A stretch of DNA of 64,000 nt from Mytilus californianus (lineage: Eukaryota), in the NCBI RefSeq assembly GCF_021869535.1, contig NW_026262666.1:1736001-1800000 (forward strand), given 5' to 3'. A program made the position numbers and the translations under genes. Below, in pieces: positions 5,060 through 48,567 of this stretch (positions are counted from its first letter, which is position 1; each line of letters opens with the position of its first letter). The notes under the pieces are model-generated. The model was not told the DNA's origin. It ran no database searches and worked only from the letters and a program-made list of their open reading frames with translations.

Positions 5060-6968
5060 ATTTATTTATTTAGAAACTACCCCTTTACAACGGGGGACAC
5101 TCATATGTCATTTTCAGAGCTAAAAATTGGTACATTATAAAATAAGACATCTTACATAAGAAAAATACACATTATGTACAATATTAAAATATGAACTAAA
5201 CTAAGAGTTACGTAAACATATTACATAAACAAAAAACATTTAAAGTTTAGGTTCCAAAACCAAAGATCTCTGAGTGTGCATTTCGCTCAACATTTTCTTA
5301 CTTAAACTGTCCAAAGTATTACTGATGTAAGGATCAATCTGATAAAAATAATCACCAATAAGTATTTGTATTTTATCGTAGGACGATAACTCTGTGAAGC
5401 AGAGGCCCGGGAAAGTAAAACTTAGATATTCATTTATATCAGAACACTCTAGAAGGCAATGTTCAATAGACTCGTCAGAATTACATAAACATATTTGGCA
5501 AGTGTGACTCTCGCTAAGATTCATCCTATACAAGACTTGGTTCACAGGTAAACAATTTGTACGTGTTAACAATTTTAGTCTTGCAGACTTAAAGTCCAGC
5601 AAGTTCGACAGATAGGGTTGCCTTCCTTGTGCAAAATTAAATTTGGAGAAAATATCTAGACTGCTTTTATCATTTATTTCTTGATATTCCCTTCTACGAA
5701 CAAACCTTCTAAGAAACTGTTTAAATATATTAGAGTTAACATTCGAGTTGTAAAAGTGATCCAGACCAACCATATTAAATAAATTTATCATATGTTGCGG
5801 ATAATTCCACCCCCTTTGAAACGTTAGGGACTTAAGTTCTTCAAATACAAGTCGACACAATGTACGTGTGCCAAGACCTTGAATCCTAGCAAAATAAGAC
5901 ACCCTTTGTCTATCAAGAAAAACGTTTATAGGCTCCCATCCCAAGTCTAGGAAAAGGGCAGCTTTTGGGATATTCATCTTAGTATTAAAAATCAGTTTCG
6001 CCGTTTTATATTGCCATGTTTCAAGTATTTGTTGACTTGAAGCAGATGACGGTAGCCATACGGCATATCCGTGTGCTAGAGACGGTCGGATGACCGAGTT
6101 CCAGAGAGCATCCCTAAAAGATATGCGATTAAAAGATCCGTGCATGCTCATTAAGTAGCTAAGTCATATAATTCAGTTTGCGCTCGAAAATATCTTTTAA
6201 GAAATGATTGATATGGTAAGCAAAGGTCAAAGAGCGGGTAAAATAAACTCCAAGATATTTATATTCATTAGTCTCGTCCAAATGCTCGTTTCCTAGGTAC
6301 CATTTCTTAGTTTTATCTCAGCGTTTGCCTACTATCATAATCTTAGATTTGTTTGGGTTAAACTTTAAATTCCACTTTGATGCAAATTTTGCTGTTATAT
6401 CTAGCAGACACTGCAGTTCCTTCTTTGACTTCCCGATAAGAACCATATCATCAGCAAACATCAAACAGTTCAAAATTTGTGAAGAGAGCTCGACGCCCAA
6501 ATTACTGGTTTCAAGCATACCTATGAGGTCATTCATTAAAACAGAAAAAAATGTTGGAGACAAAACACAGCCTTGTTTCAAGCCAAGTTCTTGGTCGAAG
6601 AAACCTGTTTCACTAGCATCAATCAAGACTTTATTTGATACATTGCTATAAAGAGATTTGAGCAATTTTCAGCACTTGCCTTGAATGCCATTTTTCCACA
6701 ATTATAGATAGAAAAGGCCATCTCGCCAGACTCTATCAAAAGCCTTGGACAGGTCTAGGAAAGCGAGAAACGTTTTATGTTTTTTTAGCTTTACGAATAG
6801 AACAAATACCTTGCAGTGTAAAAATATGGTCCTCGGTTCTTCTGTTTTTTCGAAATGCTCCCTGGACCTCGCCTAAAATATTATTTTCTTCCAAATGGGA
6901 CATTACAGATTCTTCCAAAATTTTTGCATATACTTTTTAAACATTAGAAGTAAGCGTGATACCTCTGT
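5060..6968 (-). mobile_element. 5'-truncated, degraded non-LTR retrotransposon (LINE) RT and C-terminal region
   Basis: RT motifs YRGITLTS, FLDLSKAFDRVW, LKQGCVLSP, LMFADD; C-terminal CQIC...HCLLEC; frameshifts near 6150-6320 and 6670-6800; (TAAA)n tail near 5060. Confidence 0.9.
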
Positions 6969-9263: not shown

Positions 9264-10510
9264 TGTGAACGTGGAATAGTTCGTTTTGGTTTGTTTGTTG
9301 GTATATGGCTATAATAGCTGGAATGAAAAACCAATTCTTTGTAAAATAATAGATCTTTATTAATTGCTGGTCAATGTTCAAGTGCATACATGATAAACAA
9401 TACATAATAAGTTCATACATATATAATTGAAATAACATTAATTATTTAAACTGAATGCATAATAATATAAAGATGGAACATATATATTCGCATTGTAAAA
9501 CAATAAAGATAAAATGGGGGAGCTAACTAGCTCAATTAAATTAATGTGCTGATGCCAAATAATGTCAACATGAGTGAGACAAGGGCCTCTTTTTGAATTT
9601 TGATAAGTGTTGCCATGGTAACCAAATAATTTACTTTAGAACTAAGTTAAATTAATGAAGTGTAAACAGAACATTATTAATTTAAACACAAGAGTATAAA
9701 ACATTATACTTATATACAACAATGAAATCTGAACAATAAAAATGTATATGGCTACAAGGAGAGAATTGCGCTTTATTTTCATTTCTAGTTCTGACTTTAA
9801 AACAACCATTTATACATGATTCGAATGCATACTTAAACTGTCTTAATTACTAAATCAATATACACAACTCTGGTTGTTACCTTTGAGCCTTCATAGTGAA
9901 TAAAATGCACATTCTTAATAATTTTGCATTTGACGCAGTGTTTATTTTATTCTTAAAAGTGGAGATAACTCTGTTAAATACAGCTTAATATCGCTCTGTT
10001 TTTCAACATAAAAAATGGAATGAAACGTACCATAACTACTTGCGCTTTATGATCAGATTCAAATTAACTACTAAATAACTCAATAAAAATACCGACGCTA
10101 AAGAATATTTACACGATAAAGCAAATGACTAAAATAAGTAAGTCTTTTCTTTCAAATACTTAAACATTATGAAATATCAAAATATGTGACAAAGTCGCGT
10201 TATTTAAACATTGCAATTATCTAATTATTAAAAAGAAGGATAAAAAATGCTAAATTCAATAATAGGAAACATAAAGACTTTGTCTCTAAAACATGACTAT
10301 TTACATTAGAAAATTCTGTAATTGTAAAAATACTTTTAACTTCAAATAAGCTGTTACGACTGCAACTATACCCTTTTTAGTTTCTAATATCTTAACATCT
10401 AGAGAATTATCATTTAAAATATCAATGCATAAAACATGAAAATATTCATTTAAAAATATCAACTTATAAAACTTAAAGTTACACTCACCTGGAATGAAAA
10501 ACCAATTCTT
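9264..10510 (-). repeat. Non-coding 3'-terminal extension beyond the shared LTR segment, absent from the 5' end
   Basis: Lies inside the TSD and ends in ...CGTTCACA; a 67-bp direct repeat at 9318-9384 and 10489-10555 includes the last 45 bp of the LTR. Confidence 0.8.
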
Positions 10511-11024
10511 TGGAAAATAATAGATCTTTATTAATTGCTGGTCAATGTTCAAGTGACCACAATTTCATAAAATACAAATTTTGTTTCATTCCCAGGTGAG
10601 GCCCAATTAGGTAAAATAATTATATACACAAAGGAAAATATCTCATAAACCCTGTCACTGGCCCCATGTCACCTAAGAGCTAAAATCTATGATAGCGTGG
10701 TCTTAATCCGGACATGCTAATCCAACATATAGTCAAAGGTTACATAATATTTGCTATCGCTAATAGATAATATAATAAACTCTAATTTATAGCTTTTGTA
10801 AATCTTTTGTAGAAAAATGACAATTTATAGCTATTTTATTTCTTTGTCTAATTCTGGTATTTTATATAATCTCTTTAAAAATTAACTTATAAATTCGGGT
10901 GACATGACGACAGTGAAATTCTTTTTATTTATAAAATAAATTAAAACTCATTTCTATTAAAACTATAGTAAAAATAAGTAAAAGATCTATAAGAAAAAGT
11001 GATGGTGCATTTTTCCTTATCACA
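10511..11024 (-). repeat. 3' LTR, 514-bp segment shared with the 5' LTR
   Basis: Identical to 19405-19918 except two positions by eye (g/t at 10513, t/c near 10715); begins TGTGATAAG on the minus strand; AATAAA at 10527-10532. Confidence 0.95.
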
Positions 11025-11040
11025 AATATCCCCGTCATTA
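11025..11040 (-). other. Polypurine-tract-like plus-strand primer site
   Basis: AATGACGGGGATATT immediately precedes the TG start of the 3' LTR on the minus strand. Confidence 0.6.
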
Positions 11041-11395
11041 AAGATTCTTTGTCCTCAAAGAACATAAGAAATAAAGTAAAAAAATCCAAATATCTAAAAG
11101 TTTCCCTCTGGGATCAAGTCAACATACACTTCTGAAATACATATTTGCAACAAGTCACATGAATACAATAGGATATTGTGCCCTTTTTCAGCATACACGC
11201 ATACAATTCAAATATTAATGTTTTATGTCACACAATGTAAAATTTGAATAAATAGGTATATCTGTGAAAGAATTGTATCGTACCAGTGTTCATATTGAGG
11301 CAATTCACATTACTATGGCAATCAATAAACAACCTTGAAAAAATTGTTGTGTACAACTAAAATGTATGATGTGAATGGTGATTTAAAAATGTTTC

Positions 11396-13810
11396 TCAAC
11401 ATTTTTGCTTTAATGGATTGACTGTAAACGTGTCAGGTACCTTGATTTGTTGTTTTGTGTGAACATTTACTATGCTTAAGCCTGACATTTCAACATGTAG
11501 TTTTTTATAAAAAGTACCAGATATTCTCATGTTTGTTATGTTATTTGGTGTTGCAATATCCCAATCTGATGGACATAATGGTAAATTGACAACTGGTATT
11601 GTCAAGCATGTTAAACCATTGCTGATTTCAAGTATGATTTTAGTGTGATGTCTTGTGCATACTTGTTTATATAAATAATGCAATACTCCAACAAATGAGA
11701 TAATTGTGATTGCTGCCAACACAATTGATGGCCACTGATTTAACTGTGGTGATAATAATGAATCATAATTTTGAGTTGTTGATATAGGTGATTGCATGTA
11801 ATGAAATGTTGGTGGTGTTTGTGGTGTCACAAATGCAGCTGATGATGGAGCTTTTTGTAACAGTATAAGTGCTGTTGTCAAGGCACGAACTTTGTTAAAT
11901 AGTGCAATGCAAGCAATCGTCAAAAGTATTGATAACACAAGAGATATTAGCGAGATCATCTCATTTGTGTTTGGCCAAGAATCGTCGATATCAATTTCAC
12001 CATCAAGTAATGGTTCTGACAATGAGGTAAATATTTTTCTGTCTGCTTTTGCTGCTTTTGCTATTCTTTTCAGGCTTAAGTGTAAATTATTGTCTTGTGC
12101 AATGACTGAGTTAAATGTATGGTTATAAAAATGAAGGTTGGGAAGTGTAATGTCTGCTGGGTCTGTAAAAGTTGTGTCACCTAATATCGAATTATAAGTT
12201 TCTGATGAGAAAAAGTGTTGAATAAGTGCTAAATTTACTGGATGTACTATAGTCACTGTATTTGTACTGTTATCGCACAATCCTTTTTTTGCAGGTATAA
12301 ATAACGAATCTGTTTTTACAGAACAAAGACATGGAACATGTATAATACAAAAGGAACATCCTTTTTCAATTTTATGACCTGATGGACAGTCAAAAGCAAG
12401 TGTTTTGGTTTTGTATATAAGTAAACTTGTGTCAGTTATTTCTTTGACTGCTGGCTGTATGATATTTGTAAGGAATCGGAAATTGCAATTTGAATGTACG
12501 CTTTCTTTGTCATTGAACAGTAGTGCAAAGGAACAACTTGGTGAAACAGATGAAAGTAAAGGAAAAGTTTTTGTGCAGTACAGTGTATCTATTCCTGAAC
12601 ATGTTTTTACAAATTCATCTGATAATTCTGCATACTGTCTGTTATCAGATGTGATTACTAAGTACTGTGGGAGATCTAATAATTGAGTTGCGTGATTGCT
12701 GGTTGTATTTATAGGTACAGGGTATGAGTTTATTTTGTATAGAGTGAGTGGATTCACAAATGTAGTAATTGGAAATTTGATGCTAATGAATAAATTTTTG
12801 TGATGTCTAGTATATAAAATGTTAGCTTGTGAATAATAATATGATGGGTTCACATTATTTAAGTAAAAACCTTTGAATTTGTCATTTAAGATAGATTGAA
12901 TATGCTGAATTGTACGTTTGAGATTTTGTGGTGAAATTAAAAATGGTGATAATTTGCCTTTAACTAACTCATGGACAGCTATTTTGAGTTCTTCTAGATA
13001 CTTATTAATTTCAGCTGTTTCATTCATTTGTTTGAGTAAAAATTTTGACAATTTGATGCTTAGTTTCTCAAATTGTGAGATGAATTTTGCAGTTTCTTTA
13101 GTGATATTTTGAATACCTTCATAATTGTTTTTTATACCAACTATGATATTATCAAATCTCTTATTTGTTTTTGACATATATGATGATAACAATTTATCGT
13201 GATGTGTAATATCTTTTGCAAATTGATTATTTCTTCTGATTAAAATGTTTACATGTTTTGCTAGTCTATTTACATCCTCAGTAGTTGCTGTGCCAAATAA
13301 AGATTTGGAAATTGAACCAATAAAGTCAAATAGTCCACGCTTTAGTCTAGATTCTGTATTGGATTTGTCTTCAATATCAATATGTGGAATAAGTTTATGA
13401 ATAACATCGACTGTGTGATTCACATTTGATGATACTTGAGTTCTAATTGCAGTAAGTTGTGATAAGACTTGGTTTAAAATGTAACAATGTTGATGTGTAA
13501 TATCACATTGTTCAAAGTGATCATCAGTTTGTTTGCTAGGAAGGGGAATCTTGAAAGTGTGAAGCCAATTTTCACGACCCGAAAGTAAATTTGGTTGTCT
13601 CTCAAACACTACTCCATAATTGATACGCTGTATCTGGTGCACCTTGTCAGCTGACACATATATCATTATCCACAACCATATAAAAATCCTGGCAAGACTT
13701 ATAACTCCTATAGAAAACAAAGAAAAAGGAAATTGATAGAATGTGAAATGTTTGTTGGGTAAGAGGTTGCATGCCTCTTTTAGCACTAAGTAACATGAGC
13801 ATAGGCTCAT
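11396..13810 (-). CDS. env: Envelope glycoprotein, class I fusion protein of baculovirus-F/errantivirus-Env type; true start uncertain, probably spliced
   Basis: About 804 aa from ATG 13810; signal peptide ending VSA/DK; furin site RLKR (13337-13348) followed by fusion peptide GLFDFIGSISKSLFGTATTEDV; heptad region; Cys-rich ectodomain with many NxS/T; C-terminal TM segments. Confidence 0.9.
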   Translation of the reverse strand: MSLCSCYLVLKEACNLLPNKHFTFYQFPFSLFSIGVISLARIFIWLWIMIYVSADKVHQIQRINYGVVFERQPNLLSGRENWLHTFKIPLPSKQTDDHFEQCDITHQHCYILNQVLSQLTAIRTQVSSNVNHTVDVIHKLIPHIDIEDKSNTESRLKRGLFDFIGSISKSLFGTATTEDVNRLAKHVNILIRRNNQFAKDITHHDKLLSSYMSKTNKRFDNIIVGIKNNYEGIQNITKETAKFISQFEKLSIKLSKFLLKQMNETAEINKYLEELKIAVHELVKGKLSPFLISPQNLKRTIQHIQSILNDKFKGFYLNNVNPSYYYSQANILYTRHHKNLFISIKFPITTFVNPLTLYKINSYPVPINTTSNHATQLLDLPQYLVITSDNRQYAELSDEFVKTCSGIDTLYCTKTFPLLSSVSPSCSFALLFNDKESVHSNCNFRFLTNIIQPAVKEITDTSLLIYKTKTLAFDCPSGHKIEKGCSFCIIHVPCLCSVKTDSLFIPAKKGLCDNSTNTVTIVHPVNLALIQHFFSSETYNSILGDTTFTDPADITLPNLHFYNHTFNSVIAQDNNLHLSLKRIAKAAKADRKIFTSLSEPLLDGEIDIDDSWPNTNEMISLISLVLSILLTIACIALFNKVRALTTALILLQKAPSSAAFVTPQTPPTFHYMQSPISTTQNYDSLLSPQLNQWPSIVLAAITIISFVGVLHYLYKQVCTRHHTKIILEISNGLTCLTIPVVNLPLCPSDWDIATPNNITNMRISGTFYKKLHVEMSGLSIVNVHTKQQIKVPDTFTVNPLKQKC

Positions 13811-14034
13811 AATTTTTAACAAACATTACACAGAAAGCAAAGAAAGAATTTTATAGTAAGAGTGTTCAGTTATGCCAACATCCTCATATAATGTTTCACA
13901 GATAGATAGGTGACCAATGTATGAAGTTTTAGATATATATGTAAAATTGTAAAAACCACTACCGTAAAAGTTATATATATATATGTAATAATCTATCTCA
14001 TGAAAGTCAATTGTAAGAAAAATTTTCAAAATTG

Positions 14035-17000
14035 CTATACAAAACATGGATTCCTTTGTGGGCGTTTGCGTCTTCTCCCCTGTTGTGTTTTCGTAGCATG
14101 GAAATTATTGATAATGTCATCACTTAAATCTTTGGCAAGTTGCCATGTAAGTCCTCTGTAACCTTTCCACTTTATTAAATATTGTTTTTGACCGTCAATT
14201 GTCCTTGACCTAATAATTCTTTCTATTGGGTACTCCTGGTCATCATTTTGATCCTTTGGATCTGCATCATTGTCATCATCATCAACAATAGGTGCTTGTT
14301 GTGCCTCCTGTTGAGGTTGTACTTGTGGCTGAACTGGCATTGGTAAATCTGGACGAGGCACATCCATGGGAGGTGCGTTTAAATTTTGTCTGTGATCAGG
14401 TGGGTGGTATAGTTTTAGCCTGTTTGCATTGATCATACTTTTGAGTAATTTATGGTCGCTACATCTGCGCAATTTGTATGTGTAATTCGAACCTTTGTCA
14501 ACAATGTAGAATGGTCCATCTTGTTTCTTGTAAAGTTTGGAAGAATATCCAACTGGTACTTTTGGAGTAAATACTAAAACTTGGTCGTTTACTTCAAACT
14601 TTGGCAATTCTGTACGTTTGTCATAATTTGTTTTCTGCTTTTGTTGAGCATGGTTTAAGTTTTCTGTAGCTATTGCCTTAGCTATTTTCAAGTTGTCCAA
14701 TATATTATCAATATGTGTTTTCAGGTTTTTGTTAAGATCTTCCCTTGGGATAAGGTTGACATCAAAAGGAAGGTTCATGTCTTTGCTAAAAACAAGATAG
14801 AATGGAGAGTACTCTGAAGAAGCAGATGGAGTCATGCGAAAAGCCATTAGAATACCAGGCAGTAGTTCTGGCCAATTTGACTGTTGTTCATTAATGACAG
14901 TTCTAATGCATTGTATGATGGTTTTGTTGGTACGCTCAGCAATTGAATTTGTTTGAGGATGGTAAGAGCTTGTGAAGGAATGTTTGACATTAAAAATGTG
15001 GTTAACTGCTGCAACAAGCTTGCTCATGAATCCTTGACCACGATCTGTACAGATGGAAACTGGGCTTCCAAATCTTGTAAATATCTCCTTGTGTAATACA
15101 GAGGCAATTTCTGCTGCACTTTCTGACTTAACTGGAAAACATTCTACCCATTTACTGAAGGAATCGACTATGATCAAGATGAAGCGATGTCCTTCGCTTG
15201 TCTCTCTCTTAAAAGGACCAATAAAGTCCATGTGCCATCGAGCAAATGTATCTGTAATTGGCATTGGTGTCATTGGAACTCTTTTGGAATGTGGTGGATA
15301 TTTTGCTTTTTGACATGGTTCACAACCTCTAATGTATTCTGTAACTACTTGGTACATGCGTGGAAAATAGTACTTTTCTTGAATAGACTGGTATGTCCGA
15401 TCAAAACCAAAGTGTCCGTGATCATGGTATGCCTTCATTAGATCATTTCTAAGTGTACGTGGCAATGCAAGTTGTTTAATGAACCTTTTGATTTTTCTTA
15501 AACCTTTTTGTCTTGGTTGGTACTGATGATACAGGACATCATCTTGCATGATATATTGGCTTGCCTCTAGGACAACCTTTTGTGCTATTTTCTTGTCATC
15601 TGGTAGTGTGTTGTTTTTAACATATTCATATATGAGACTAAAATCTGGACATTCACTCTGAAGTTTGCCTATTTCTATGGGTATGATATCAGATGTTGTT
15701 AATTCTGCAACTAAAGGTGATTTGCTTTTAGGCTGATCAGAATAGACAAAAGTAACTTCAAGAAAAGGATTTTCAGATTGGTCAATAGTATGAATTGAAG
15801 GAATGACATCTTCAGGTTCAGAAATATCAGATTCTTTTGTGACTGGATATTCACGTCTAGAAAGACAATCAGCAACAACATTTGTTTTACCTTGTCTGTA
15901 TAAAATTTCCATGTCATAACCTTGTAACAAAACTGACCATCTGGCCAAGCGACCAGTAGATTGTTTGATGTTGTTCAGAAATTTTAGAGCATTGTGATCT
16001 GTATACACTTTAAAATGTTTGTATGCTAGGTAAACATGATATGTTTTGACACCTTCCAATATAGCTAGACATTCATGCTCACTAGCTGACCATTTCCTCT
16101 CTGCTTCCGTTAAACTTCGACCACCATAAGCTATAACTTTCTCTTGGCCTTCAGAATCTAATTGAGCAAGAAAATAACCAATAGCTGTGCCGCTGGCATC
16201 AGTGGTAAGAATAAAGTCTTTCGACATGTCAGGATAAGCAAGAATAGGAGATGAAATCAGAGTCTTTTTGAGTTTATCAAAAGCAACTTGACAATCCTCT
16301 GTCCATTCAAAAGGTACATTGTCCTTAGTCAGATTATGCAATGGACCTGCAATGTGGCTATACCCTTGAACAAATTTTCTGTAATAGTTACAGAGACCTA
16401 AGAAACTTCTGACCTGTTTTTCAGTTTTAGGCACAGGAAAAGATTCTACAGTTTCAATTTTAGATTTGTCAACTTCAACACCTTTCTTAGAAACTTTATG
16501 GCCTAGATAAATGACTTCTTTTCGTGCAAACTGACATTTGCTTGGTTTAAGTGTGAGATTTGCAGCTTTCAATCTGTCAAAAACAAGCTGAAGATGTTTT
16601 AAATGTTCTTCAAATGTTCTGCTAAAGACAAGTATGTCATCTACATAGACTAGAGCAATCTGGTAATTGAGACGATGAAGAACCTGAGTCAAAAGATGTT
16701 GAAAAGAAGATGGTGCTGCTGATAAACCAAAAGGAAGCCTTTTCCACTGATAAACTCCACTAGGAGTGACAAAAGCAGATTTATGAGCCGTGGCTGGGTC
16801 TAACTGACATTGCCAATATCCGGACAAAAGATCTAAAGTTGTGAATATCTGCGCTTGTGAGCGCCCTAAGGAGTCAAGAACATCCTCAATGCGAGGCAAA
16901 GGAAAAAACTTGGGACGTGACACCTTATTAAGGGAGCGAAAATCACAACAGAACCTTAGTTCTCCCGATTTCTTTTTGCACATGACTACAGGTGCAGCCC

Positions 17001-18105
17001 ATTCACTGGTGGACTCTTCTATGATACCGTGTTCAAGCATTTTGTCAATTTGTTTGTTCATTTCTTCTAGAACTGGTGGAGATTGTCTGTAAAACCTTTT
17101 TCGTATTGGTGGCGCATCACCAGTGTCAATTGTATGTTTGTATAGATTTGTATTTCCTAGTTCACTAAGATCTTTGGCAAAAACTCGTCTATTTTTAGAA
17201 AGAAATGCTTGGAGAATAGTTTTTTGATCTTCAGACAGATCTGAGTCACTAAAATCAAAGTCTAAGATGTCACACTGATCATCAGATTTAGAATTCTGAG
17301 TTTTCTTATCAACTTGAGTGTCTGTTAAAGAAATGATAGATTTAGAGTCAACTGCAGAAACTGAAGCAACAACAAAGTTAGCTGGCAAATGAATAGTTTT
17401 TTCTGTAGGATTCATCACTCTCATGAAAGAATTGCCAGTGTCATCTAGTTGAACAATGGACTTTGCCCCAGCTAATGATTGACTTGGTAATGTGTGCAAG
17501 GGTTCTAAAAGAGCAGTTTGGTTTCTTAAATTGGACACTTTGACTGGAATGTCAACTTGATGTAACCCTTTGATGTGAATGTGTCTCTTTGTGCGAGCTA
17601 ATCCATTGTTTAACTCTACAGAATGGACAAGTTTTTCATCAGTGTCTGGCTCTGGGATAAACAGAGTGTTAGAGGGACAATCAATGATTGCTCCATTTTC
17701 AGTTAGAAAATCAAATCCTAAAATCATACTTTGTTGCATTTTGGAAAAGACATGAAAACGATAGACAAAAGAAATATTTCCTATAGTAAAAGGCAAAAGG
17801 ATAAGTCCTAAAATGGGATGGTGTTCACCCCCAACACCTACAGCATCTTGAACTCTTGTTCGCTGAATTTGTTTAAGATCAAAGTTTAAAGATTTGAGTA
17901 AATTTACTGAGCAGCAGCTAATAGCTGCTCCTGTGTCAACCAAACTTTTTACGTTGTTACCTTTTATTGTAACGTGAACTGTATTGCCATTTAATTTTGA
18001 CAACTGTGCAATTTCTGGTAATTTTAAATTTTCATTTTTATGTGTTTCTTTTCTGTTTTTGAAATTTCTGTTTTGGTGTTGTCTCTCTTGCCTTTGTTTT
18101 GTGTG
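14035..18105 (-). CDS. pol: Pol polyprotein: protease, RT, RNase H, integrase, GPY/F, chromodomain
   Basis: DTGA protease, YVDD RT, TDASG RNase H, HDHGH..CEPC zinc finger, DDE core (WHMDFIG, TDRG, ERTN), GPFYI, C-terminal EYPIERII..YLIKWKGY..TWQ. Frame is open back to the gag stop with no Met before the protease active site. Confidence 0.97.
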   Translation of the reverse strand, partial: HTKQRQERQHQNRNFKNRKETHKNENLKLPEIAQLSKLNGNTVHVTIKGNNVKSLVDTGAAISCCSVNLLKSLNFDLKQIQRTRVQDAVGVGGEHHPILGLILLPFTIGNISFVYRFHVFSKMQQSMILGFDFLTENGAIIDCPSNTLFIPEPDTDEKLVHSVELNNGLARTKRHIHIKGLHQVDIPVKVSNLRNQTALLEPLHTLPSQSLAGAKSIVQLDDTGNSFMRVMNPTEKTIHLPANFVVASVSAVDSKSIISLTDTQVDKKTQNSKSDDQCDILDFDFSDSDLSEDQKTILQAFLSKNRRVFAKDLSELGNTNLYKHTIDTGDAPPIRKRFYRQSPPVLEEMNKQIDKMLEHGIIEESTSEWAAPVVMCKKKSGELRFCCDFRSLNKVSRPKFFPLPRIEDVLDSLGRSQAQIFTTLDLLSGYWQCQLDPATAHKSAFVTPSGVYQWKRLPFGLSAAPSSFQHLLTQVLHRLNYQIALVYVDDILVFSRTFEEHLKHLQLVFDRLKAANLTLKPSKCQFARKEVIYLGHKVSKKGVEVDKSKIETVESFPVPKTEKQVRSFLGLCNYYRKFVQGYSHIAGPLHNLTKDNVPFEWTEDCQVAFDKLKKTLISSPILAYPDMSKDFILTTDASGTAIGYFLAQLDSEGQEKVIAYGGRSLTEAERKWSASEHECLAILEGVKTYHVYLAYKHFKVYTDHNALKFLNNIKQSTGRLARWSVLLQGYDMEILYRQGKTNVVADCLSRREYPVTKESDISEPEDVIPSIHTIDQSENPFLEVTFVYSDQPKSKSPLVAELTTSDIIPIEIGKLQSECPDFSLIYEYVKNNTLPDDKKIAQKVVLEASQYIMQDDVLYHQYQPRQKGLRKIKRFIKQLALPRTLRNDLMKAYHDHGHFGFDRTYQSIQEKYYFPRMYQVVTEYIRGCEPCQKAKYPPHSKRVPMTPMPITDTFARWHMDFIGPFKRETSEGHRFILIIVDSFSKWVECFPVKSESAAEIASVLHKEIFTRFGSPVSICTDRGQGFMSKLVAAVNHIFNVKHSFTSSYHPQTNSIAERTNKTIIQCIRTVINEQQSNWPELLPGILMAFRMTPSASSEYSPFYLVFSKDMNLPFDVNLIPREDLNKNLKTHIDNILDNLKIAKAIATENLNHAQQKQKTNYDKRTELPKFEVNDQVLVFTPKVPVGYSSKLYKKQDGPFYIVDKGSNYTYKLRRCSDHKLLKSMINANRLKLYHPPDHRQNLNAPPMDVPRPDLPMPVQPQVQPQQEAQQAPIVDDDDNDADPKDQNDDQEYPIERIIRSRTIDGQKQYLIKWKGYRGLTWQLAKDLSDDIINNFHATKTQQGRRRKRPQRNPCFV

Positions 18106-19356
18106 TCAATAATCTACCCTATAATTAGATTGTCTTGGTTGCCAGTTTTGTGAATTAGATTGTTGTCTTGGTTGCCAGTTTTGTGAATTTGCCTTTCGCT
18201 CATCAAATTCTTTCTTATCACATACCTCTTTAAAATGACCAAACTTGTGACAATAAAAACATTCAACATTGTATGCTGGGCATTTTCTCCTATCAAATAC
18301 ATGTGACTTACCACAAAACTTGCATTTGGTCAGTGACTGCTGCCTTGATCCTCTATAATTTTGACTGTAATTTGGCTTGTTTTGATCATGATGAGGTACA
18401 CCCACTGCCATCACTTGTTCTTTAAAAACTGATCTAATACCCTCTACTAAAGAAGAACATAAATCATTAATTGAATGTACATTGTTTACACTTTCTACAT
18501 TTAATTTTTGAACATTTTGTGTAGTTATGTTTGTATTGTTCGTGTTAACATCACTAGCTTTACATTCTGCTACACTAGTTGCAAGGTAAATTGCTTCTCT
18601 TAATTCATTTATTGTTTTGGGATCTTTCCCTACCACAAACGGTTTGATATCTGGGTTAAGCCCATTTTTACATAAACCCACAATTGTCTGCTCACTAATG
18701 TTCTGTGCACCACTTGCTAGGTTTTGCACTCTAGTTAAGTACTGTATCCCGGTCTCATGCGGATGTTGTTTAAGGCGGTACAACTCATTGTTTGTGTTAT
18801 GGTGTTTAAATCTGTCCAGAAAAGCAGCTTTCAAATTTGTCAGATCATCACGTGTTTCTGTAGGTAAGGAATGATACCATGTTGAGGCTTGTCCCTCCAC
18901 ATGAAATGAAAATGCAGCTAAAGCTGCCTCATTCTGATAATTTTGTAGTTTAATGTAATTTTCAAACATGGTCCACCAAATGGCAGGAACCTGGCTTGTT
19001 TCATCATGAAAATGAGCTAAATTTATATGTGACATTACTCGTTTTGTATTATTTGTCAAACCTATTGGAATAATTTGCACTATCTGTTGTTCAGCTTCTG
19101 GTTCTATTTCTATTTCTTCTTCTGCTTGTTCTGTGTCTTGCAAATTTATCTGGTTATTTGCTACTGGTTCCTGTTCAGTTATGTTGACAATCTCTGTTTG
19201 ATCGTCACCTGGTTGTTGTTCGGTTATGTTTACCAGAATTTCCTCTAGATCTGTGGAGTATATGTCCTCTGCGACTTGTGCTTTGGCCCTTGTGTTATAA
19301 TTGGACGGTGTTGCCCCTGTCGTTGACTTGGCACCAGCTGTGTTTCTGTATGGCAT
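18106..19356 (-). CDS. gag: Gag (416 aa) with two C-terminal zinc knuckles
   Basis: Retrotransposon capsid-like region (WWTMFENY, ASTWYHSL, LKAAFLDRF, GLNPDIKPFV); CKFCGKSH..C and CFYCHKFGHFKEVC knuckles; ATG 48 nt downstream of the 5' LTR. Confidence 0.93.
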   Translation of the reverse strand: MPYRNTAGAKSTTGATPSNYNTRAKAQVAEDIYSTDLEEILVNITEQQPGDDQTEIVNITEQEPVANNQINLQDTEQAEEEIEIEPEAEQQIVQIIPIGLTNNTKRVMSHINLAHFHDETSQVPAIWWTMFENYIKLQNYQNEAALAAFSFHVEGQASTWYHSLPTETRDDLTNLKAAFLDRFKHHNTNNELYRLKQHPHETGIQYLTRVQNLASGAQNISEQTIVGLCKNGLNPDIKPFVVGKDPKTINELREAIYLATSVAECKASDVNTNNTNITTQNVQKLNVESVNNVHSINDLCSSLVEGIRSVFKEQVMAVGVPHHDQNKPNYSQNYRGSRQQSLTKCKFCGKSHVFDRRKCPAYNVECFYCHKFGHFKEVCDKKEFDERKANSQNWQPRQQSNSQNWQPRQSNYRVDY

Positions 19357-19391
19357 GTAGACAGTAGAGCGAGGTAACAGGAAAGAGTCAG

Positions 19392-19401
19392 TCCTCTACC
19401 A
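19392..19401 (-). other. Putative primer-binding site
   Basis: TGGTAGAGGA starts 3 nt after the 5' LTR end; the TGG start is typical of a PBS complementary to tRNA CCA. Confidence 0.6.
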
Positions 19402-19404
19402 ATT

Positions 19405-19918
19405 TGTAAAATAATAGATCTTTATTAATTGCTGGTCAATGTTCAAGTGACCACAATTTCATAAAATACAAATTTTGTTTCATTCCCAGGTGAGGCCCAA
19501 TTAGGTAAAATAATTATATACACAAAGGAAAATATCTCATAAACCCTGTCACTGGCCCCATGTCACCTAAGAGCTAAAATCTATGATAGCGTGGTCTTAA
19601 TCCGGACACGCTAATCCAACATATAGTCAAAGGTTACATAATATTTGCTATCGCTAATAGATAATATAATAAACTCTAATTTATAGCTTTTGTAAATCTT
19701 TTGTAGAAAAATGACAATTTATAGCTATTTTATTTCTTTGTCTAATTCTGGTATTTTATATAATCTCTTTAAAAATTAACTTATAAATTCGGGTGACATG
19801 ACGACAGTGAAATTCTTTTTATTTATAAAATAAATTAAAACTCATTTCTATTAAAACTATAGTAAAAATAAGTAAAAGATCTATAAGAAAAAGTGATGGT
19901 GCATTTTTCCTTATCACA
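19405..19918 (-). repeat. 5' LTR (514 bp)
   Basis: TG...CA (TGTGATAAG...TTTTACA on the minus strand); 512/514 identical to 10511-11024. Confidence 0.95.
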
Positions 19919-21719
19919 CCTTCAACAAGAAAAGTATTTATAAGTTATGCAATTTGTTTTAAAGTAACAATTAAAAATCTGATAACAACCGAGAAAATGT
20001 GTGCTACACAGAAATTCAAACCTTAATCATACATTTACAACTTTATAAATCAGTGGTTTTTAAAACGCATAAATTCCGACAAATTCCAGGTCAAATCATA
20101 TTGTGTTTTCATATGTAAGCAATCAAAATCCACAACTGAAATTTCGCCAATCATTACACAATATAAATAAAAAGAGGTGTGGGACGAGCTTCAAATTTAC
20201 GTGAATGAAAAAACCAACCTAAGAATATGCTAAAAACGACAGTAGTAATCGAATGTCAACAAGTTGTCTTATACCTCCGTTATATCATTCGATTCGTTCA
20301 TTAGTTAATGTAATTGGATTAGCTGACGTATCGCGGTACAATATGGCTGCTCTGTTAAAAAATACCACAAAGTTAACATATCAATAGTTTTGATATAACT
20401 AAAGATACAAAATATCTTTTGTAGTACATGTTGTGCCGGTATCAAGTAAGGCTATCTAGATCTTGTGTTTATCGTTAGTTTTTGTCTTTCTTGGTCTCTG
20501 GTGGATAAGTGTCTCATTGAAAATCCTACCACATTTAATATTGATTTTGTTATCAGTAAATTAAAAGCAAACTAAACATTATTGTTATAAACATATGCAC
20601 TTTCATGGATCCTGTATCTTGGCATTGCACAAAAGTCATGTTTTTCGCTGACTGTTTATGGCGTCTTTACACAAAATCCATGGGATGTTGGATGTGTACT
20701 GATTGATAAATTAGTCTTAGATACATGAATTGTTTTATTAGTTGTTATTGGCTTTGAACTAGCTGTCATTAAGTGCGAGTACACTCAGATCTGTACTTAG
20801 TGTCTTTTTGTTGTTTGGATGTACAAGATTCCACCCACGTCCAATCTGTGTTTTTCTTTTATGTACTTCTATCTATCCATCTGATGAGTTAAGCCTTTTT
20901 CAACTGATTTTTATAGTTCGTTGTTATGCTGTACTGTTAAATCACTGTCCCAGGTGAAAGGAAGGGTTGGGATCTCGCTAACATATTTAACTTCCGACAC
21001 ATTCTGTATGTATGTGCCTGTCCCAAGTCAGGAGCCTGTAATTCAGTATTTGTCGTTTGTTGCTGTGTTACATTTTTTTTGTACACTTATTAGGCCGTTA
21101 GTTTTCTCGTTTGAATTGTTTTACATTTATGATTTCGGGGCCTTTTATAGCTGACTATGCGGTATCGGCTTCGCTCATTGTTGAAGGTCGTACGGTGACC
21201 TATAGCTGTTGATTTCTGTGTCATTTGGTCTCTCGTGGAGAGTTGTCTCATTAGCAACCATACCACATCTTCCTTTTTTATATTCACAAAGAAAGATAAA
21301 CAGCAACGATCAACGCAATATACAGATAACATGACTTAATACAGGCACAAAATGTACTAAAGTTAAAACCAAGTTTACGTGTATACTTTTCGTTTCCTTG
21401 AATTCTTTATTTGTAGAATTTTATTAATTTAAAAAAATTAAGAACTGAATAAAGAAAAATAACAATTTTGTTTTATAAATTTGGTGCGTGTGTTTTTCAT
21501 TATTTATTTTTACCAGGAATGCTAAAACCAAAAACTTTGAAAAACAAGAATGTGTAAGGGTTCAAATACTTGAGGAGCTGAATATCTACATACATATAGT
21601 AACTTATTTATTTCGTTTTATTCAATTTCACATACGTATACTGGAACGTTATAATGAAATGTTAATAGAAACCAAAATGTTTTTCCTAGTACTTACTTCT
21701 TTTTTAAGTTTTATTTTCT

Positions 21720-24371: not shown

Positions 24372-27300
24372 TACGGAAGCCGATAAGGGCCATTCAAAAA
24401 AAAAGAATTATGTCGTAACATGTCGTAATAACGACATCACTATGTCGTAATTTCGACATAGCATGTCGTTATAACGACATCGCTATGTCGTAATTTCGAC
24501 ATAACAAGTCGTAATTACGACATCACTATGTCGTAATTACGACATAGCTATGTCGTAATAACGACATCGCTATATATATAAAAGAATATGTATTATGATT
24601 GCCAAGAGACTAAATGACACAGAAATTAACAACTAAAGGTCATCATAATGCCTTCAATAATGAGAAAAGCCCCCGCATAGTCAGCTATAAAAGAGGGACG
24701 AAAGATACCAGAGGGAGAGTCCCCGAAATGACAGCTGTTTAACAATTTAATTCAAACGAGTGAAAATAACGGTTTTAATAATGGATAAACAAAGACCGAA
24801 ACACGAATATGTAACCCAGCAACAAATGACAACCACTGAATTACAGACTCCTGACCGCTATCTGATAATAACGACAACCTTATAGGTTAACTTTTCACTT
24901 TTTGATTCGATAGGAATTTCAAAATGGTCGCCAGTAAAGGCAAAGTTTGTAGCGTAAACAAATTCATCTTTTTTTTGAGAATATTGAACACTTTATGCAA
25001 TCAAGCTTAATTAAAGTTATTCACTAGCACCTCAGACTTGCACATACTAGAACTTTATTTATAATCAAGTCAAATGAGACCCAGTTGAATAGGGGAGCAA
25101 TTCAAGCTCCCTGGAGCCTCTAATTATGTTTGGCATTGCAGGTTATGAATAAGATGAATTTTAAGCTTTGTCCAATAAAGACTATGTTAAACTTTGGACT
25201 CATAGTGCTCAGACCCACGGATCTCTGTACCTTCATTTGTACACACTTGAATCTTAATGTACTACTGAGGCTTGATGCAAATTATAACTGCATTGCTATT
25301 GTTGGTTCTTAATGAGATTCTTCAAGCGTCCTCCCTATTGAAGCCCTATTAAAACTTTGCATCCCAAGTTCTTTTAACCACTGTTCCCCAGGGCAACTAT
25401 TCCTACAAACTTAGAGGGAGGATTGGGATCCCGCTAACATGTTTAACCCCGCCACATTCTTAATGTATGTGTCTGTCCCAAGTCTTTAATTTACATATTT
25501 GTTTTTCGTTTATTTTTGTACATAAAATAGGCCGCTAGTTTTTCTCGTTTGAATTGTATTACATTTGTCATTTCGGGGCCTTTTATAGCTGACTATGCGG
25601 TATGGGCTGTGATCATTGTTGAAGTCCGTACGGTGACCTATAACTGTTAATTTCTGTGTCATTTGGTTTCTTGTGGAGAGCTGCGTTTTTTAACAAACCA
25701 GCGTATCCCAAAGCCTTGATAACCTCTGTAGGCCCCAAATAAGACGAAAAAACATCAAAATTGGAGAGAAAACTGAAAATAAATGGTTTCTAACCTCAGG
25801 GATATTAACCCTTGGCATGCTGAATTGTTATCAGAAATTGTCTAAATTTCGAGTATTTGTAAAAATATGCAAATGATATGCAAATGAGCTGTACCCTGAT
25901 GCTGATGCATACTGATTGCATTAAATCTAAGATAGCCAAGGGTTAATATCCCTGAGGTTAGAAACCATTTTTTTTCAGTTTTCTCTCCAATTTTGATGTT
26001 TTTTTCGTCTTATTTGGGGCCTACAGAGGTTATCAAGGCCTTGGGATACGCTGGTTTGTTCAAAAACGCAACTCTCAACAAGAAACCAAATGACACAGAA
26101 ATTTACAATTAAAGGTCACCGTACGGCCTTCAACAATGATCACAGCCATATCGCATAGTCAGCTATAAAAGTCCCCGAAATGACAAATGTAATACAATTC
26201 AAACGAAAAAAACTAGCGGCCTATTTTATGTACAAAAATAAACGAAAAACAAATGTGTAAATTAAAGACTTGGGACATACACATACATAAAGAATGTGGC
26301 GGGGTTAAACATGTTAGCGGGATCCTAACCCTCCCCTTAAGTTTGTAGGAATAGTTGCCCTGGGGAACAGTGGTTAAAAGGACTTGGGGTACAAAGTTTT
26401 AATAGGTCTTCAATGGGGAGGACGCTTGAAGAATCTCATTAAGAACCAACAATAGCAATGCAGTAATAATTTGCATCAAGCCTCAGTAGTTACTGTACAT
26501 TAAGATTCAAGTGTGTACAAATGAAGGTACAGAGATCCGTGGGTCTGAGCACTATGAGTACAAAGTTTAACATAGTCTTTATTGGGAAAAGCTTAAATTC
26601 ATCTTATTCAGAACTTGCAATGGAAATGCAGGACTTCATAATTTACACAAATCTGTACATGTCAAACATAATTAGAGGCTCCAAGGAGTTTGAATTGCTC
26701 CCCTATTCAACTGGGTCTCATTTGACTTGATTATAAACAAAGTTCTAGTATGTGCAAGTCTGAGGTGCAAGTGAATAACTTTAATTAAGCTTGATTGCAT
26801 ATAGTGTTCATTATTCTAAAAAAAAAAGATGAATTTCTTTCCGCTACAAACTTTGCCTTTACTGACAACCATTTTGAAATGCCTATCGCATCAAAAAGTG
26901 AAAAGTTAAACTATAAGGTTGCCGTTATTATCACATAGCGGTCAGGAGTCTGTAATTCAGTGGAATTGTCATTTGTTGCTGTGTTACATATTCGTTTTTC
27001 GGTCTTTGTTTGTACATTATTAAAACCGTTATTTTCACTCGTTTGAATTAAATTATTAAACAGCTGTCATGTCGGGGACTCTCCCTCTGGTATCTTTCGT
27101 CCCTCTTTTATAGCTGACTATGCGGGGGCTTTTCTCATTATTGAGGGCATTATGATGACCTATAGTTGTTAATTTCTGTGTCATTAAGTCTCTTGGCAAT
27201 CATAATACATATTCTTATATATATATAGCGATGTCGTTATTACGACATAGCTATGTCGTTATTACGACATAGGGATGTCGTAATAACGACATGTTATGTC

Positions 27301-27415
27301 GAAATTACGACATAGCGATGTCGTTATAACGACATGTTATGTCGAAATTACGACATGCTATGTCGTAATTACGACATAATTATTTTTTTTTGAATGGCCC
27401 TTATCGGCTTCCGTA
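24372..27415. mobile_element. 3044-bp palindromic (foldback) non-autonomous DNA element, IS3EU-like termini
   Basis: Arms 24372-25816 and 25935-27415 are reverse complements with scattered substitutions and an indel; 118-bp spacer; ends TACGGAAGCC...GGCTTCCGTA; AAAATA directly repeated at 24366-24371 and 27416-27421. Confidence 0.8.
24409..24571. repeat. Subterminal minisatellite of self-palindromic units (ATGTCG-TAATWA-CGACAT); mirror copy at 27228-27378
   Basis: About 22-bp period, each unit is a small hairpin. Confidence 0.9.
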
Positions 27416-27630: not shown

Positions 27631-29530
27631 TTAATTAATTTCACATATGTATGCTTCACTTCTAGATCCATGAAATGTCACAAGAAACTTGTTAGTATTT
27701 TGTTTAAAACGCATTACCCATGGCCTTTCAGTCATATCTTCGTCTATGTCTGATAAAGCAATGGTACGGGCGAGTTGTCCGTCAGGTGTCACCTGATGGA
27801 TGTTTTTAGCATAATGTTCTACTATGTATATGTTGCCGTCGCGATCAATATTCTGGTGAAACGGTGAGCTCAAGTTACTCTTGCAGTCAAAATCTGTTCC
27901 GACAAATGATTCAAATCTTATTGAATGTGTATTCCTAAAAATGTTCTTATTTTCCCTATGACTACCTACAAATGTCGTGTGGTACTCCTCTTATTTAGCA
28001 CCATATTCAGTGTTGGACAAGGAAATGATACTACTATGTGCAATGATTTCTTCATGAATGAACATGCACATTCCGAACATTCCAACATTTATATTGACTG
28101 TTTTGATTGTTATCAAAGATTTAACGTTAATTATAAAAGTCTTTCCATAAGAACGGCATTGATAAATGGACACGGCTACTGTATGATCATTCACCTTAAT
28201 AATATCGGTTGGACGTTCATTAATTTGAAATTCTAATGTGTCTATTTGTTTTCCAGTATTATCGTGGTAGGCTATTCTGTTTTCATTGTACTCCGTTATG
28301 ATGATGTCGTCTTTAAAGAATATGCCACTGGTGTAAGCACCTCTAACATCAATCGTAAAAATCACGTGTATCTTCCCTAAAAGGGAGGGTTTGTTTTCTT
28401 TCAAATGCAAGCGACCAAAGCACATAGTGTCTGAAATGATATTCATTGTTTCGAACTTTATTGATATGTCTCTTATACCTTGTAAAACTGTGGACAAGTC
28501 ATTTTTAAAGTGTGGCATTTTACTTGAAATATCCTCCATTTTGACCAGGCAATGAATTTCAGAACCTTGGGACAAACAGGCCCTGAAGATATACTTCCAA
28601 TAATCAAAGGCACTCTTCAAGGCCACTAATTCACTAATCTCTTCATTCAGTCTTAGAATATTAGTTTTTCTTACACTTTTTACTTCTTCTTTGATTTTCA
28701 GTTCAAGTTCATCTAAACGGTCATTCAATGTTTGTCGCATGTTACCGATTTCTGTCAAAACAACATCTATATCTTTTTCGAAATTTGTTGTACTTTGTTT
28801 CCTATTGTCAATAATTACTTCCAACTTGTTACTTGTTTCTTTTAATTCCATCATTAGTTCCTGTGCTTTTATAGATTTTTTTTATACCAGTTACAGCTTT
28901 ATCTATGGTAACCAAGTGTTCACATTTTCTATGATGTACAGTAGCACAAACGGTACAACATGGTTTGGAGTGATCTTTGCAGTATGTTTCGATTGTCTTG
29001 TCTGGATGTTCATCGCAAGCAACAAATCCAAAGACATTTCCAATAAGCGTATCTTCCGTTATATCTTGAATCAAAACTATCTTGTGATTTCTCGCCATTT
29101 TATATTTTGTATGATTGACTTCACAAGAATCGCAATAGGCCTCTTCACAAATCGTGCACCATGAGATTGCTTTTTTGGAAATGTTTTCACTGCTACAAAC
29201 ATCACAAAATTTCTCATCCTGTTTCATTGTTCTCCTGTCAATCAATGAATTAATAAAATGATTTGCAGGCAAAGTTTTTACCCATGTATCAGGTTTTGCG
29301 ATGATGTCTCCAACCAGAACAAGGCGACTACATAATGGGCACTTGAATCCTTCTGGTTTTTCTTCCTTTACTGTTGAAACAACATATGTACTTAAACAGC
29401 TCTCACAAAACGTGTGTAGGCACGGTAAAGTCTTTGACTGTTTAAATGTTTCAAGGCAAATAGTACACGTCAATAAATCGGTTAAATCTTCTTTTAACGT
29501 TTCTTCCTTTACGTTAGCTAAAGTCGCCAT
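27631..29530 (-). pseudogene. TRIM-like gene copy with one frameshift and one premature stop
   Basis: ORFs 28829-29530, 27991-28854 and 27631-27873 align collinearly with the intact 642-aa paralog; +1 in a T8 run at 28876-28883; in-frame TAA at 27991-27993. Confidence 0.92.
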
Positions 29531-30168
29531 TTTGTCTTTACTGTTAAAGTTCCTTGTTGAAATATAAATAACGAGATAAATATAGAATGCATACTATTTT
29601 TAGATGATTGAGTGGGATTCTATGAAATATTCTGGTTGTTATCTTGTTTATATACGAACAAAGAAATCGACGTGCGCTATATATGGACATTTGTATTTGT
29701 TAGGTTGGTAAATATTTGTTTTTACAGAAAAAAGAATTGATTAATTGTTGGTTGTTTACGTCCAGTGGCAACATAAAAAAGAAAGTTACCCTTCCAATCA
29801 TATACCAAGAGTCCACAAAAGGAATGTTAATTGATAAAGACTAAACGTAGTGTTCTTGTAATGAACTTATCAACATAAATTCTTTACTTTTTGAATTAGT
29901 CGGATATTTATTTGTAGTATCACTTGTTAATAATCACGTACAAGGCAAGTAGACAAATTTTCGTTTTTTTTTTTTTTTGTTTTTTTTTAATCTATCAAAA
30001 TGAAACATGCGAAATTACATAATACAGTTTTTTGCACAATGTATGAAAATTACGTTACACTTTTAAGATTGATAAAGTTTTCAGGATACAAGGTAATATA
30101 TTACAATTGATTTGGTTAATTGAATGCTGCTTTGTGCCAATAACCACTTCTGAAATTGTTTTTTAACT

Positions 30169-46638: not shown

Positions 46639-48567
46639 TTATTCAATTTCACATACTAACACTGGACCAGCCGATGATGGAAACGTTAAAAGAAACCGGT
46701 TAGTATTTCGTTTAAAGCGCATCACCCAGGGATATTTAGCTGTATTGTAGATATCTGATACAGGTATGATACGGATAAGTTGTCCAGTAGGATTTAGCTG
46801 ATGGATGTTGTTTGAACTATGTCCTACAACGTATATGTTCCCATCTTGATCAATTTCCTGATTATACGGAAAGGATAATTTACTATGAGTATACGGAAAA
46901 TCTTTTCCGTCAGCTAATTGAACCTTAATAGAATTGGTGTTATTCATATAAACGTATTCATTTTTCTTGTAACAAGTAACAAATCGTGTGTCTACACCTG
47001 CTGCTAATTCTTTTATTTTAGCACCCGTTTCAGCGTTTAGCCAATAAATGGTATTATTGTTAGCAGTTATGTACTCATTTTCTATCAAACACAATCCCCA
47101 TACAGCAGCTTTAATATTTAATGTCTTTGCTACAGTAAACGGTTTAACGTTAATTATAAAAATCTTGCTTGCATCAGAAGACACGGCTACAGTTTGATCA
47201 TTCACTTTAGTGACATCAGACGGGGTATTCGGAATGTTCAATTCATCTGTTTGTTTTCCGGTATTGTCGTGATAAACGATCCTTTTCTTATCATAATCGG
47301 TTATAATGATATCGTCGTTGAAGAATATTCCACTGACAAAAGAGCCTTTAATCTCAATTGTAAACAACACTTTTATCTTTCCAGTATGAAAGTCTATTGT
47401 CTTTAATCCAGGAAGAGACGGTCTATGGTCATTGAACTGCAGGCGACCGAAACAAGCAGTGTCCGAAATAACGTCCGTAGCTTCAAACTTAATATGAATG
47501 TCCTTAATACCCTGTATAGCTTTAGACAAATCATTTTCGATGTCCGGCATTTTCCTGGAAATCTCCTCCATTTTGACCAAACATTGTATTTCAGATCCTT
47601 GTGATATACAAGCCTCAAATATATTTTTCCACTGATCGTACGTACTCTTCAATGATAATAAGTCAGCAGACTCTTCACTTAATCGTAGAACATTGTTTTT
47701 CCTTGTACTATTTACTTCGTCTCTTATCTTGTTCTCGAGTTCATCTAGTTTTTTGTTTAATTTTTCACGAACATTCCCAATTTCTACTAAAACAGCATCT
47801 GTTTCTCCTTCGAAATTTGTCGTATTTTGTTTACGAGTATTAATAACTGCTTCTAATTTTCTAACTGTTTCTTTCAACTTCGTCAGAAGTTCCTTTGCTT
47901 TTGTAGATTCCTTGACACCGGTTACAGCTTTATCTATAGTAATGACGTGTTCACATTTTCTATGGTGTACAGTAGCACAAACGGTACAACATGGCTTGGA
48001 GTGATCCTTGCAGTATATTTCTATTGTTTTGTCTGGATGGTCATCGCAAGCAACAGAAGCAAAAATATTTGGAGCATTCATTTCTGCATTTATATCTGTA
48101 ATAGCTAATAAGTTGTGGTTCCGTGTAATTTTGAATCTTTTATGACTTACTTCACATGGACCACAATAAGCTTCATCACAAACAGTGCACCATGATATGG
48201 CTTTTTGAGAGACGTTTTCGTTGCTACACGCATCGCAAAGTTTCTCCGCTTTCTTCATAGCTCTCCGGTCAATCATTGAATTGACAAAATGATTTCCAGG
48301 TAGGTTTCTAGCCCACGTGTCGGGTTTCACCATACTGTCGCTAGACGATACAAGACGACGACATACTGGGCACTTAAATCCTTCTGGTTTTTCTTCCTTC
48401 ACGGTTGAAACAATATATGTATTTATACATGATTCACAGAACGTATGTAGACAAGGTAAATACTTTGGCTGTTTAAATGTTTCAAGACAAATAGAACACG
48501 TCAATAAATCGCCAAAATCTTCGTTGATAGATTCTTCCTTAAAGTTTGCGTCTGCTGAAGTCGCCAT
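46639..48567 (-). CDS. Intronless TRIM-like E3 ubiquitin ligase (RING, B-box1, B-box2, coiled coil, NHL-like beta-propeller), 642 aa
   Basis: C3HC4 RING CSICLETF..LPCLHTFCESC..CPVC; B-box CDAC..WCTVCDEAYCGPC..H; B-box CDDH..YCKDH..CCTVC..HHRKC; coiled coil; propeller repeats ending DQDGNIYVVG..SNNIHQL; open from ATG 48567. Confidence 0.95.
   Translation of the reverse strand: MATSADANFKEESINEDFGDLLTCSICLETFKQPKYLPCLHTFCESCINTYIVSTVKEEKPEGFKCPVCRRLVSSSDSMVKPDTWARNLPGNHFVNSMIDRRAMKKAEKLCDACSNENVSQKAISWCTVCDEAYCGPCEVSHKRFKITRNHNLLAITDINAEMNAPNIFASVACDDHPDKTIEIYCKDHSKPCCTVCATVHHRKCEHVITIDKAVTGVKESTKAKELLTKLKETVRKLEAVINTRKQNTTNFEGETDAVLVEIGNVREKLNKKLDELENKIRDEVNSTRKNNVLRLSEESADLLSLKSTYDQWKNIFEACISQGSEIQCLVKMEEISRKMPDIENDLSKAIQGIKDIHIKFEATDVISDTACFGRLQFNDHRPSLPGLKTIDFHTGKIKVLFTIEIKGSFVSGIFFNDDIIITDYDKKRIVYHDNTGKQTDELNIPNTPSDVTKVNDQTVAVSSDASKIFIINVKPFTVAKTLNIKAAVWGLCLIENEYITANNNTIYWLNAETGAKIKELAAGVDTRFVTCYKKNEYVYMNNTNSIKVQLADGKDFPYTHSKLSFPYNQEIDQDGNIYVVGHSSNNIHQLNPTGQLIRIIPVSDIYNTAKYPWVMRFKRNTNRFLLTFPSSAGPVLVCEIE

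Follow-up and report, generated by a model that had tools for sequence, protein, structure and literature searches.

The element and its genes

The candidate readthrough site lies in a 9.4-kb LTR-gag-pol-env(F) Gypsy element on the minus strand of the window, by which we mean the whole stretch of 64,000 nucleotides analysed; all features of the element given below are on that strand. The 5' LTR, whose TG...CA ends were read from the sequence, covers about 514 bp (19405..19918). Alignment with it places the 3' LTR at 10511..11024, and the two are 99.6% identical, with 2 mismatches in a 516-nt alignment. A putative primer-binding site beginning with TGG is found 3 nt past the LTR (19384..19401). 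It is followed by gag (18109..19356), which encodes 416 aa from the ATG at 19356 and carries a Retrotrans_gag / Ty3 capsid domain (PF03732, E 8e-12) and C-terminal zinc-knuckle motifs. The pol frame (14035..18105; 1356 codons) contains, according to Pfam, protease (DTG at 17937), RT, RNase H, integrase and a C-terminal chromodomain. A third frame of 809 codons (11396..13825) encodes an F-type glycoprotein (PF12259 Baculo_F, E 4e-19), with an RLKR furin-type site and, as judged by hydropathy, a hydrophobic leader and two C-terminal hydrophobic segments. This env frame was missed in the initial annotation, which described gag and pol only.

Because the LTRs are nearly identical and the three frames carry the corresponding Pfam domains, the element is a recently inserted, young env-F Gypsy element. 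The TG...CA LTRs, the primer-binding site and the Pol order PR-RT-RH-IN are those of Ty3/gypsy (Metaviridae), and a third ORF with an F-type fusogen, leader, furin-type site and TM is that of an env-F errantivirus, in the broad sense of PMC13524379. The flanks, inspected for a target-site duplication, are identical at three of four bases. The closest named proteins are labelled Mytilus, with 77-86% identity for Gag and at best 94% for Pol, which makes a mussel the likely host. Raw RNA reads of run X21 over 10400-20000 were nearly all in the sense orientation of the element, at a depth of 1-5.

The gag-pol junction

A single in-frame TGA closes gag (18106..18108), in the context AT-TGA-CAC-ACA-AAA, and is the candidate readthrough site. 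Read from stop to stop, the gag frame spans 18106-19395 (429 codons) and the pol frame 14035-18105 (1356 codons). They adjoin at 18106/18105 in one and the same frame with a single UGA-C between, as the initial annotation had described. Its reading of the gag end, GAT TAT TGA followed by CAC ACA AAA, is also correct, except that it did not mention the minus strand, on which the stop runs from 18108 to 18106. The same is true of the 34 codons that it found open beyond the stop (the run reaches TTG at codon 35) and of the 1773 aa that it predicted for Gag-Pol, the length of Gag-X-Pol from the ATG of gag. The linker between the stop and the protease Asp (17938..18105) consists of 56 open codons by frame scan; it is A-rich and, on folding, predicted to be unstructured. 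No in-frame ATG occurs in these 56 codons ahead of the DTG, the only two ATGs there being out of frame, which bears out the claim that no Met precedes the protease. Bypass via another frame was rejected: both other frames are stopped within 20 nt upstream of the TGA, and two shifts would be needed.

The RNA folds that we computed consider nested structures only. The 60 nt starting at the stop gave a fold of 0.0 kcal/mol (z +0.6), and no long-range partner for the junction beat the controls (best -18.9, versus -15.0 to -24.5 for shuffled sequences). The earlier statement that no obvious pseudoknot is visible downstream in this A-rich sequence holds for the junction of the window; its relatives, in contrast, keep a covarying hairpin. 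The C at +4 is present in UGA-CAC-ACA, and UGA-CAC has no exact match among classified viral readthrough hexamers. The hexamers of the type II and type I context signals (UGA-CUA or UGA-CGG; CAR-YYA) are absent from the junction, as is the type III, MLV-like signal (UAG-G, 8-nt spacer, structure from +12), the junction having UGA-C and no fold. RNA depth over the stop codon was about 0-2.

Conservation of the stop codon among copies

We then compared the junction with other copies. All eight genomic DNA matches (76-100% identical) carry TGA-CA at the aligned site, namely four copies at 98-100% identity and four decayed ones at 76-82%, and the TGA is therefore neither an error nor a private mutation. 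A sense codon in other copies, which the initial annotation had named as the finding that would speak against recoding, is absent (the stop is retained in 8/8), and the alignment that it proposed revealed a stop conserved in these copies and as a rule across the clade described below. The length of the Gag tail ahead of the TGA varies among the eight matches. Another DNA run contributes a 179-nt contig across the site, with no change at 18106-18108 among the 40 of 80 entries listed, and a loose contig end from a second species label (run X10) reads CAT TGA CAC ACA AAA. Two Gag proteins labelled Mytilus edulis (P0001, P0006) share the final residue position, and in P0004, a Gag of 57% identity, the end lies at a similar distance past the knuckle. 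The copies, the second DNA run and the Gag protein ends together rule out a sequencing error or private nonsense mutation. Searching the genome with a loose pattern of the window context returned 10 matches, seven in already-known copies of the element and three unrelated, and added no copy.

The first 41 codons past the stop differ from copy L041 by three synonymous and no non-synonymous changes, and pol by 27 synonymous versus 9 non-synonymous codons, from which Pol looks to be under selection. Pol is intact (1356-1364 codons) in all four young copies. Values of pN/pS for the linker were mixed in sister pairs, near 1 for L073/L074 and 0.24 for L052/L055. Compared with the nearby coding DNA, the stop context showed no excess conservation across five subfamilies: its 15 columns include 12 invariant ones, and 18% of windows reach this level.

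One in-frame stop across a clade of relatives

We examined 61 loci: the window and 60 others taken from at least 150 protease matches, comprising the 45 whose open frame exceeds 1000 codons and 15 more. Sorted by hand, the junctions comprised 32 with one in-frame stop, 8 fused, 6 with gag in another frame, 9 with a Pol that has its own Met, 4 unclear and 2 without DTG. A tree of RT and integrase was built for 22 representatives by a quick search, with SH-aLRT only and no bootstrap. It contained a clade of 14 representatives (SH-aLRT 99), which takes in every stop-bearing row of the tree: 13 have exactly one in-frame stop and one is fused, while none is frameshifted. The window is sister to L043, a UAG-hairpin family (SH-aLRT 100), from which its Pol has diverged to 73% identity. 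The distance from knuckle to Asp ranges from 53 to 122 codons in the 14 stop families, and the frame is always kept, with exactly one stop. Keeping the frame despite such variable length argues for continuous reading, since neither reinitiation nor splicing needs it. We infer that readthrough was the ancestral means of making Pol in this clade.

Several observations were made on individual families. A fused gag-pol family (L048, L049), which has no env match, is nested among stop-and-hairpin families and has apparently lost the stop. L055, L062, L066 and L087 have the stop and the hairpin with no env match, so the link between readthrough and env is not a strict one. In the sister clade (L050, L051, L053, L054, L056, L058, L067-L069), Pol frames of 1113-1645 codons have their own Met, often preceded by a pyrimidine tract and AG. 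No gag frame of at least 250 codons lies between the near-identical LTRs of L050 and L068, and Pfam detected no gag domain in L051 and L068.

Beyond the genome, a metagenome scan yielded 20 loci, none of them a close relative with an intact junction, and in viral contigs neither the hairpin pattern (0 matches) nor RT (0 loci) turned up. The best 120 of 699 Pol homologues begin at Met, so that a stop would not be visible in them. Several of the homologues listed start with DRH/DGH-like peptides resembling those encoded by the 3' arm of the hairpin, which is a weak hint only.

A hairpin downstream of the stop in the relatives

In the tree clade, 12 stop-bearing relatives have an 8-nt spacer and a covarying hairpin from +12, mostly after UAG-G. 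The minimum-energy fold has a stem including +12 in 17 of the 18 relatives folded, and z is -2.4 or lower in 16 of them. The hairpin alignment (A1, 16 relatives) has an invariant GCC...GGC base and eight pairs, with 98.4% of 128 cells paired and compensatory changes on both sides in five of the eight pairs. The covariation score was 0.49, versus 0.32 for shuffled alignments (0/500) and at most 0.21 when the alignment was slid; two of five covariation measures were unexceptional (31/500 and 66/500 shuffles), and the shuffling takes no account of relatedness. Gaps in the loop are multiples of 3. A pattern of UAG-G plus hairpin occurs at 37 places in the genome, and the reversed control at none.

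The stop contexts of the relatives are mostly UAG-GGA or UAG-GAA. The hairpin is also kept with UAG-CAA-UYY in three copies (L073, L074, L076), near the type I context of TMV, and with UGA-UGU in two (L059, L060). According to the folds, absence of the hairpin is peculiar to the lineage of the window, since the relatives keep it with covariation. Near the loop, many hairpins (L046:2420-2473 and kin, alignment A1) contain another AGGC. The 5' GCCU could pair either with it or with the distal arm, so that a two-state fold is possible.

A probable in-frame splice from gag to env

A contig of run X5, which is probably RNA, joins position 18312 to 13707 on the strand of the element, with GT..AG ends. 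Run X13, probably also RNA and from the same study, has env letters as a loose end at the same donor; no joint end at the donor was found among the matches listed for the DNA run. The donor supported by these two contigs, G/GTAAGT (18306..18312), lies directly past the first CxxC of the Gag knuckle region, in phase 1. The env acceptor seen in the X5 contig (13707..13732), with a pyrimidine tract and TAG/G, is also in phase 1 and lies just upstream of the predicted signal sequence. The joint is in frame (phase 1/1) and predicts a protein of 1118 aa, with 348 aa from Gag up to the first knuckle motif, then the Env leader. A phase-1 TAG/G acceptor precedes the env leader in 9 of the 11 env families examined. 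A donor-like G/GTA motif follows the first knuckle CxxC in 7 of 14 stop families, although the coding of Cys-Gly-Lys itself favours this motif. An in-frame gag-env splice hints at an unusual link between capsid and envelope.

How Pol is made

We propose that the element inherited the TGA as the end of gag and that Pol is probably made by occasional programmed readthrough. A single conserved in-frame stop lies between NC and the protease, and pol has no AUG, as is characteristic of programmed readthrough. We put the probability of this reading at about 0.8, since a hairpin-less UGA-C may yield too little Gag-Pol. The ancestor of the clade would have had an MLV-like arrangement of stop, 8-nt spacer and hairpin. 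The lineage of the window would since have lost the hairpin and would rely on the leaky UGA-CA and on unstructured, A-rich RNA. A near-cognate tRNA would decode the UGA, giving the full-length Gag-Pol at a low ratio to Gag, and the protease would then cleave the fusion.

Pol could instead be translated from a spliced RNA in which the knuckle donor at 18312 is joined to a weak phase-1 acceptor, a CAG 91 nt past the stop, so that the stop is skipped in frame. Use of this donor for env and the loss of the hairpin in the lineage of the window both fit such a scheme. However, the candidate acceptor has almost no pyrimidine tract, and no such joint is listed in five probable or true RNA runs, where the junction depth was 0-6. 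Moreover, the linker that would be skipped shows only synonymous changes relative to L041, and the frame kept across families would be left unexplained. We consider this route very unlikely.

It is very unlikely, in our opinion, that Pol initiates separately past the stop, be it from an internal promoter, by reinitiation, at a non-AUG start or by a non-canonical bypass like that of Tca2. The linker of the window has no in-frame ATG, and a linker Met exists in only some families, although near-cognate in-frame codons are present at linker positions 32 (ATT) and 35 (TTG). Precedents are the junction promoter of Tca2 (PMC2194720) and the own Met of Pol in the sister clade. With a separate start, gag and pol would have no need of a common frame, but in the clade 13 of 14 representatives have one, with one stop, and the hairpin of the relatives begins exactly at +12.

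Alternatively, the lineage might have lost its readthrough signal together with the hairpin and spread on Pol supplied by sister families. The lack of structure at the junction and the small number of near-identical copies found (four) are compatible with this. Against it, Pol has stayed intact in all four young copies after divergence to 73% identity from L043, with an excess of synonymous change; such a history seems highly improbable. Recoding of the UGA by A-to-I editing or as selenocysteine is hardly credible: only the lineage of the window combines UGA with hairpin loss, but most relatives use UAG, the stop is predicted to be single-stranded, no SECIS family appears among Rfam matches to E 10, and a SECIS pattern scan gave one unstable match (-0.6 kcal/mol), inside gag.

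Comparison with known systems

Programmed readthrough between gag and pol, our preferred explanation, has several precedents. In Moloney MLV, a type III signal consists of UAG-GGA, an 8-nt spacer and a pseudoknot from +12 (PMC13517186). As in MoMLV, a single in-frame stop separates the zinc knuckle from DTG in the window and its relatives, and relatives with UAG-GGA/GAA share the 8-nt spacer and the stem from +12. Unlike MoMLV, they are Gypsy elements and not Retroviridae, the structure predicted for the relatives from nested folds is a hairpin of 8-14 bp, and the lineage of the window has UGA-CAC and no structure. Stop-separated gag-pol is found in gamma- and epsilonretroviruses.

A parallel to the window itself is offered by the fission-yeast Ty3/gypsy elements Tj1, Tcry1 and Tosmo1-3, in which an in-frame TGA-C precedes an AUG-less pol and the signal is context only; transposition of Tj1 requires the stop (PMC4600332, bioRxiv 2022.12.06.519325). 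UGA followed by C is described as a leaky context (bioRxiv 2022.12.06.519325). These elements share with the window the chromodomain, the in-frame TGA-C, a pol without AUG and a context-only signal; unlike it, they are fungal and env-less and have the context GAA-TGA-CT. In the window the context is AT-TGA-CA, and the element belongs to an animal and sits within a group of relatives that carry the hairpin.

Tca2 is described as a Ty1/copia element. This element of Candida albicans has a UGA between gag and pol, which it shares with the window, and an 8-nt spacer and predicted structure, which it shares with the relatives (PMC2194720). The flanks of its stop directed no readthrough in a Saccharomyces cerevisiae reporter (PMC2194720), and for this reason layout alone is no proof of readthrough. 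The initial annotation had called stop readthrough the gammaretroviral strategy; MLV agrees with this, but the strategy is not exclusive to such viruses, as stop-separated gag-pol is described for Tj1/Tosmo and Tca2. Gao et al. are said to have included, in 2003, a few elements with a stop between gag and pol, among them one from Bombyx and one from rice. For animal Gypsy elements, a 2003 survey found mostly -1 frameshifts (28/51), as cited in PMC5009743.

In molluscs, annelids and cnidarians, env-F 'ancient errantiviruses' form a chromodomain-bearing clade (Chary and Hayashi, PMC13524379). Compared by description, the element of the window resembles them in its LTR-gag-pol-env order, F-type env, Ty3/gypsy domain order, C-terminal chromodomain and few near-identical copies. 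Since the table of bivalve F-env elements in that paper includes five from Mytilus, the window family or close kin is probably already catalogued there. The main text of PMC13524379 discusses neither the gag-pol junction nor env splicing and nowhere mentions readthrough, frameshifting or recoding, and a mollusc LTR survey (PMC6238403) has no match for stop codon or readthrough. The literature searched contained no account of env-bearing animal Gypsy elements that use readthrough or make an RNA fusing gag to env, an earlier mention being possible.

Stop-separated gag-pol itself is known; what stands out here is the MLV-like signal across a clade, its replacement in the lineage of the window and the gag-env splice. 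One clade in one genome offers a natural series of signals, from structure-dependent UAG through mixed forms to structure-free UGA-CA and a fused revertant, in which the exchange of recoding signals without loss of the Gag:Pol ratio can be studied. The results would add readthrough to the animal Gypsy elements, and annotation pipelines would be wrong to call such elements broken or to place the start of Pol at a downstream Met. A broader scenario, to which we would give somewhat less than even odds, is that a mollusc env-Gypsy clade independently reached the gammaretroviral signal (UAG-G, 8-nt spacer, +12 structure) and swapped it for UAG-CAA with hairpin, UGA-U with hairpin, bare UGA-CA or stop loss. 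In the same scenario, the clade would express Env as a spliced fusion behind a nucleocapsid-less Gag, the Env leader tying the capsid domain to the membrane.

Other features of the window

RING/B-box (TRIM-like) genes lie at 46639-48600 and 27991-29593 on the minus strand, an intact frame of 653 codons and a split paralogue about 19 kb away. Near-palindromic 21-22-nt repeats form two arrays about 2.7 kb apart (24400-24589 and 27211-27335), which may mark the termini of a DNA transposon or MITE. A frame of 307 codons on the minus strand (5240-6163), with a weak zf-RVT match, is likely a LINE fragment, and 60999-62133 is taken up by a tandem repeat whose period is about 499 bp.
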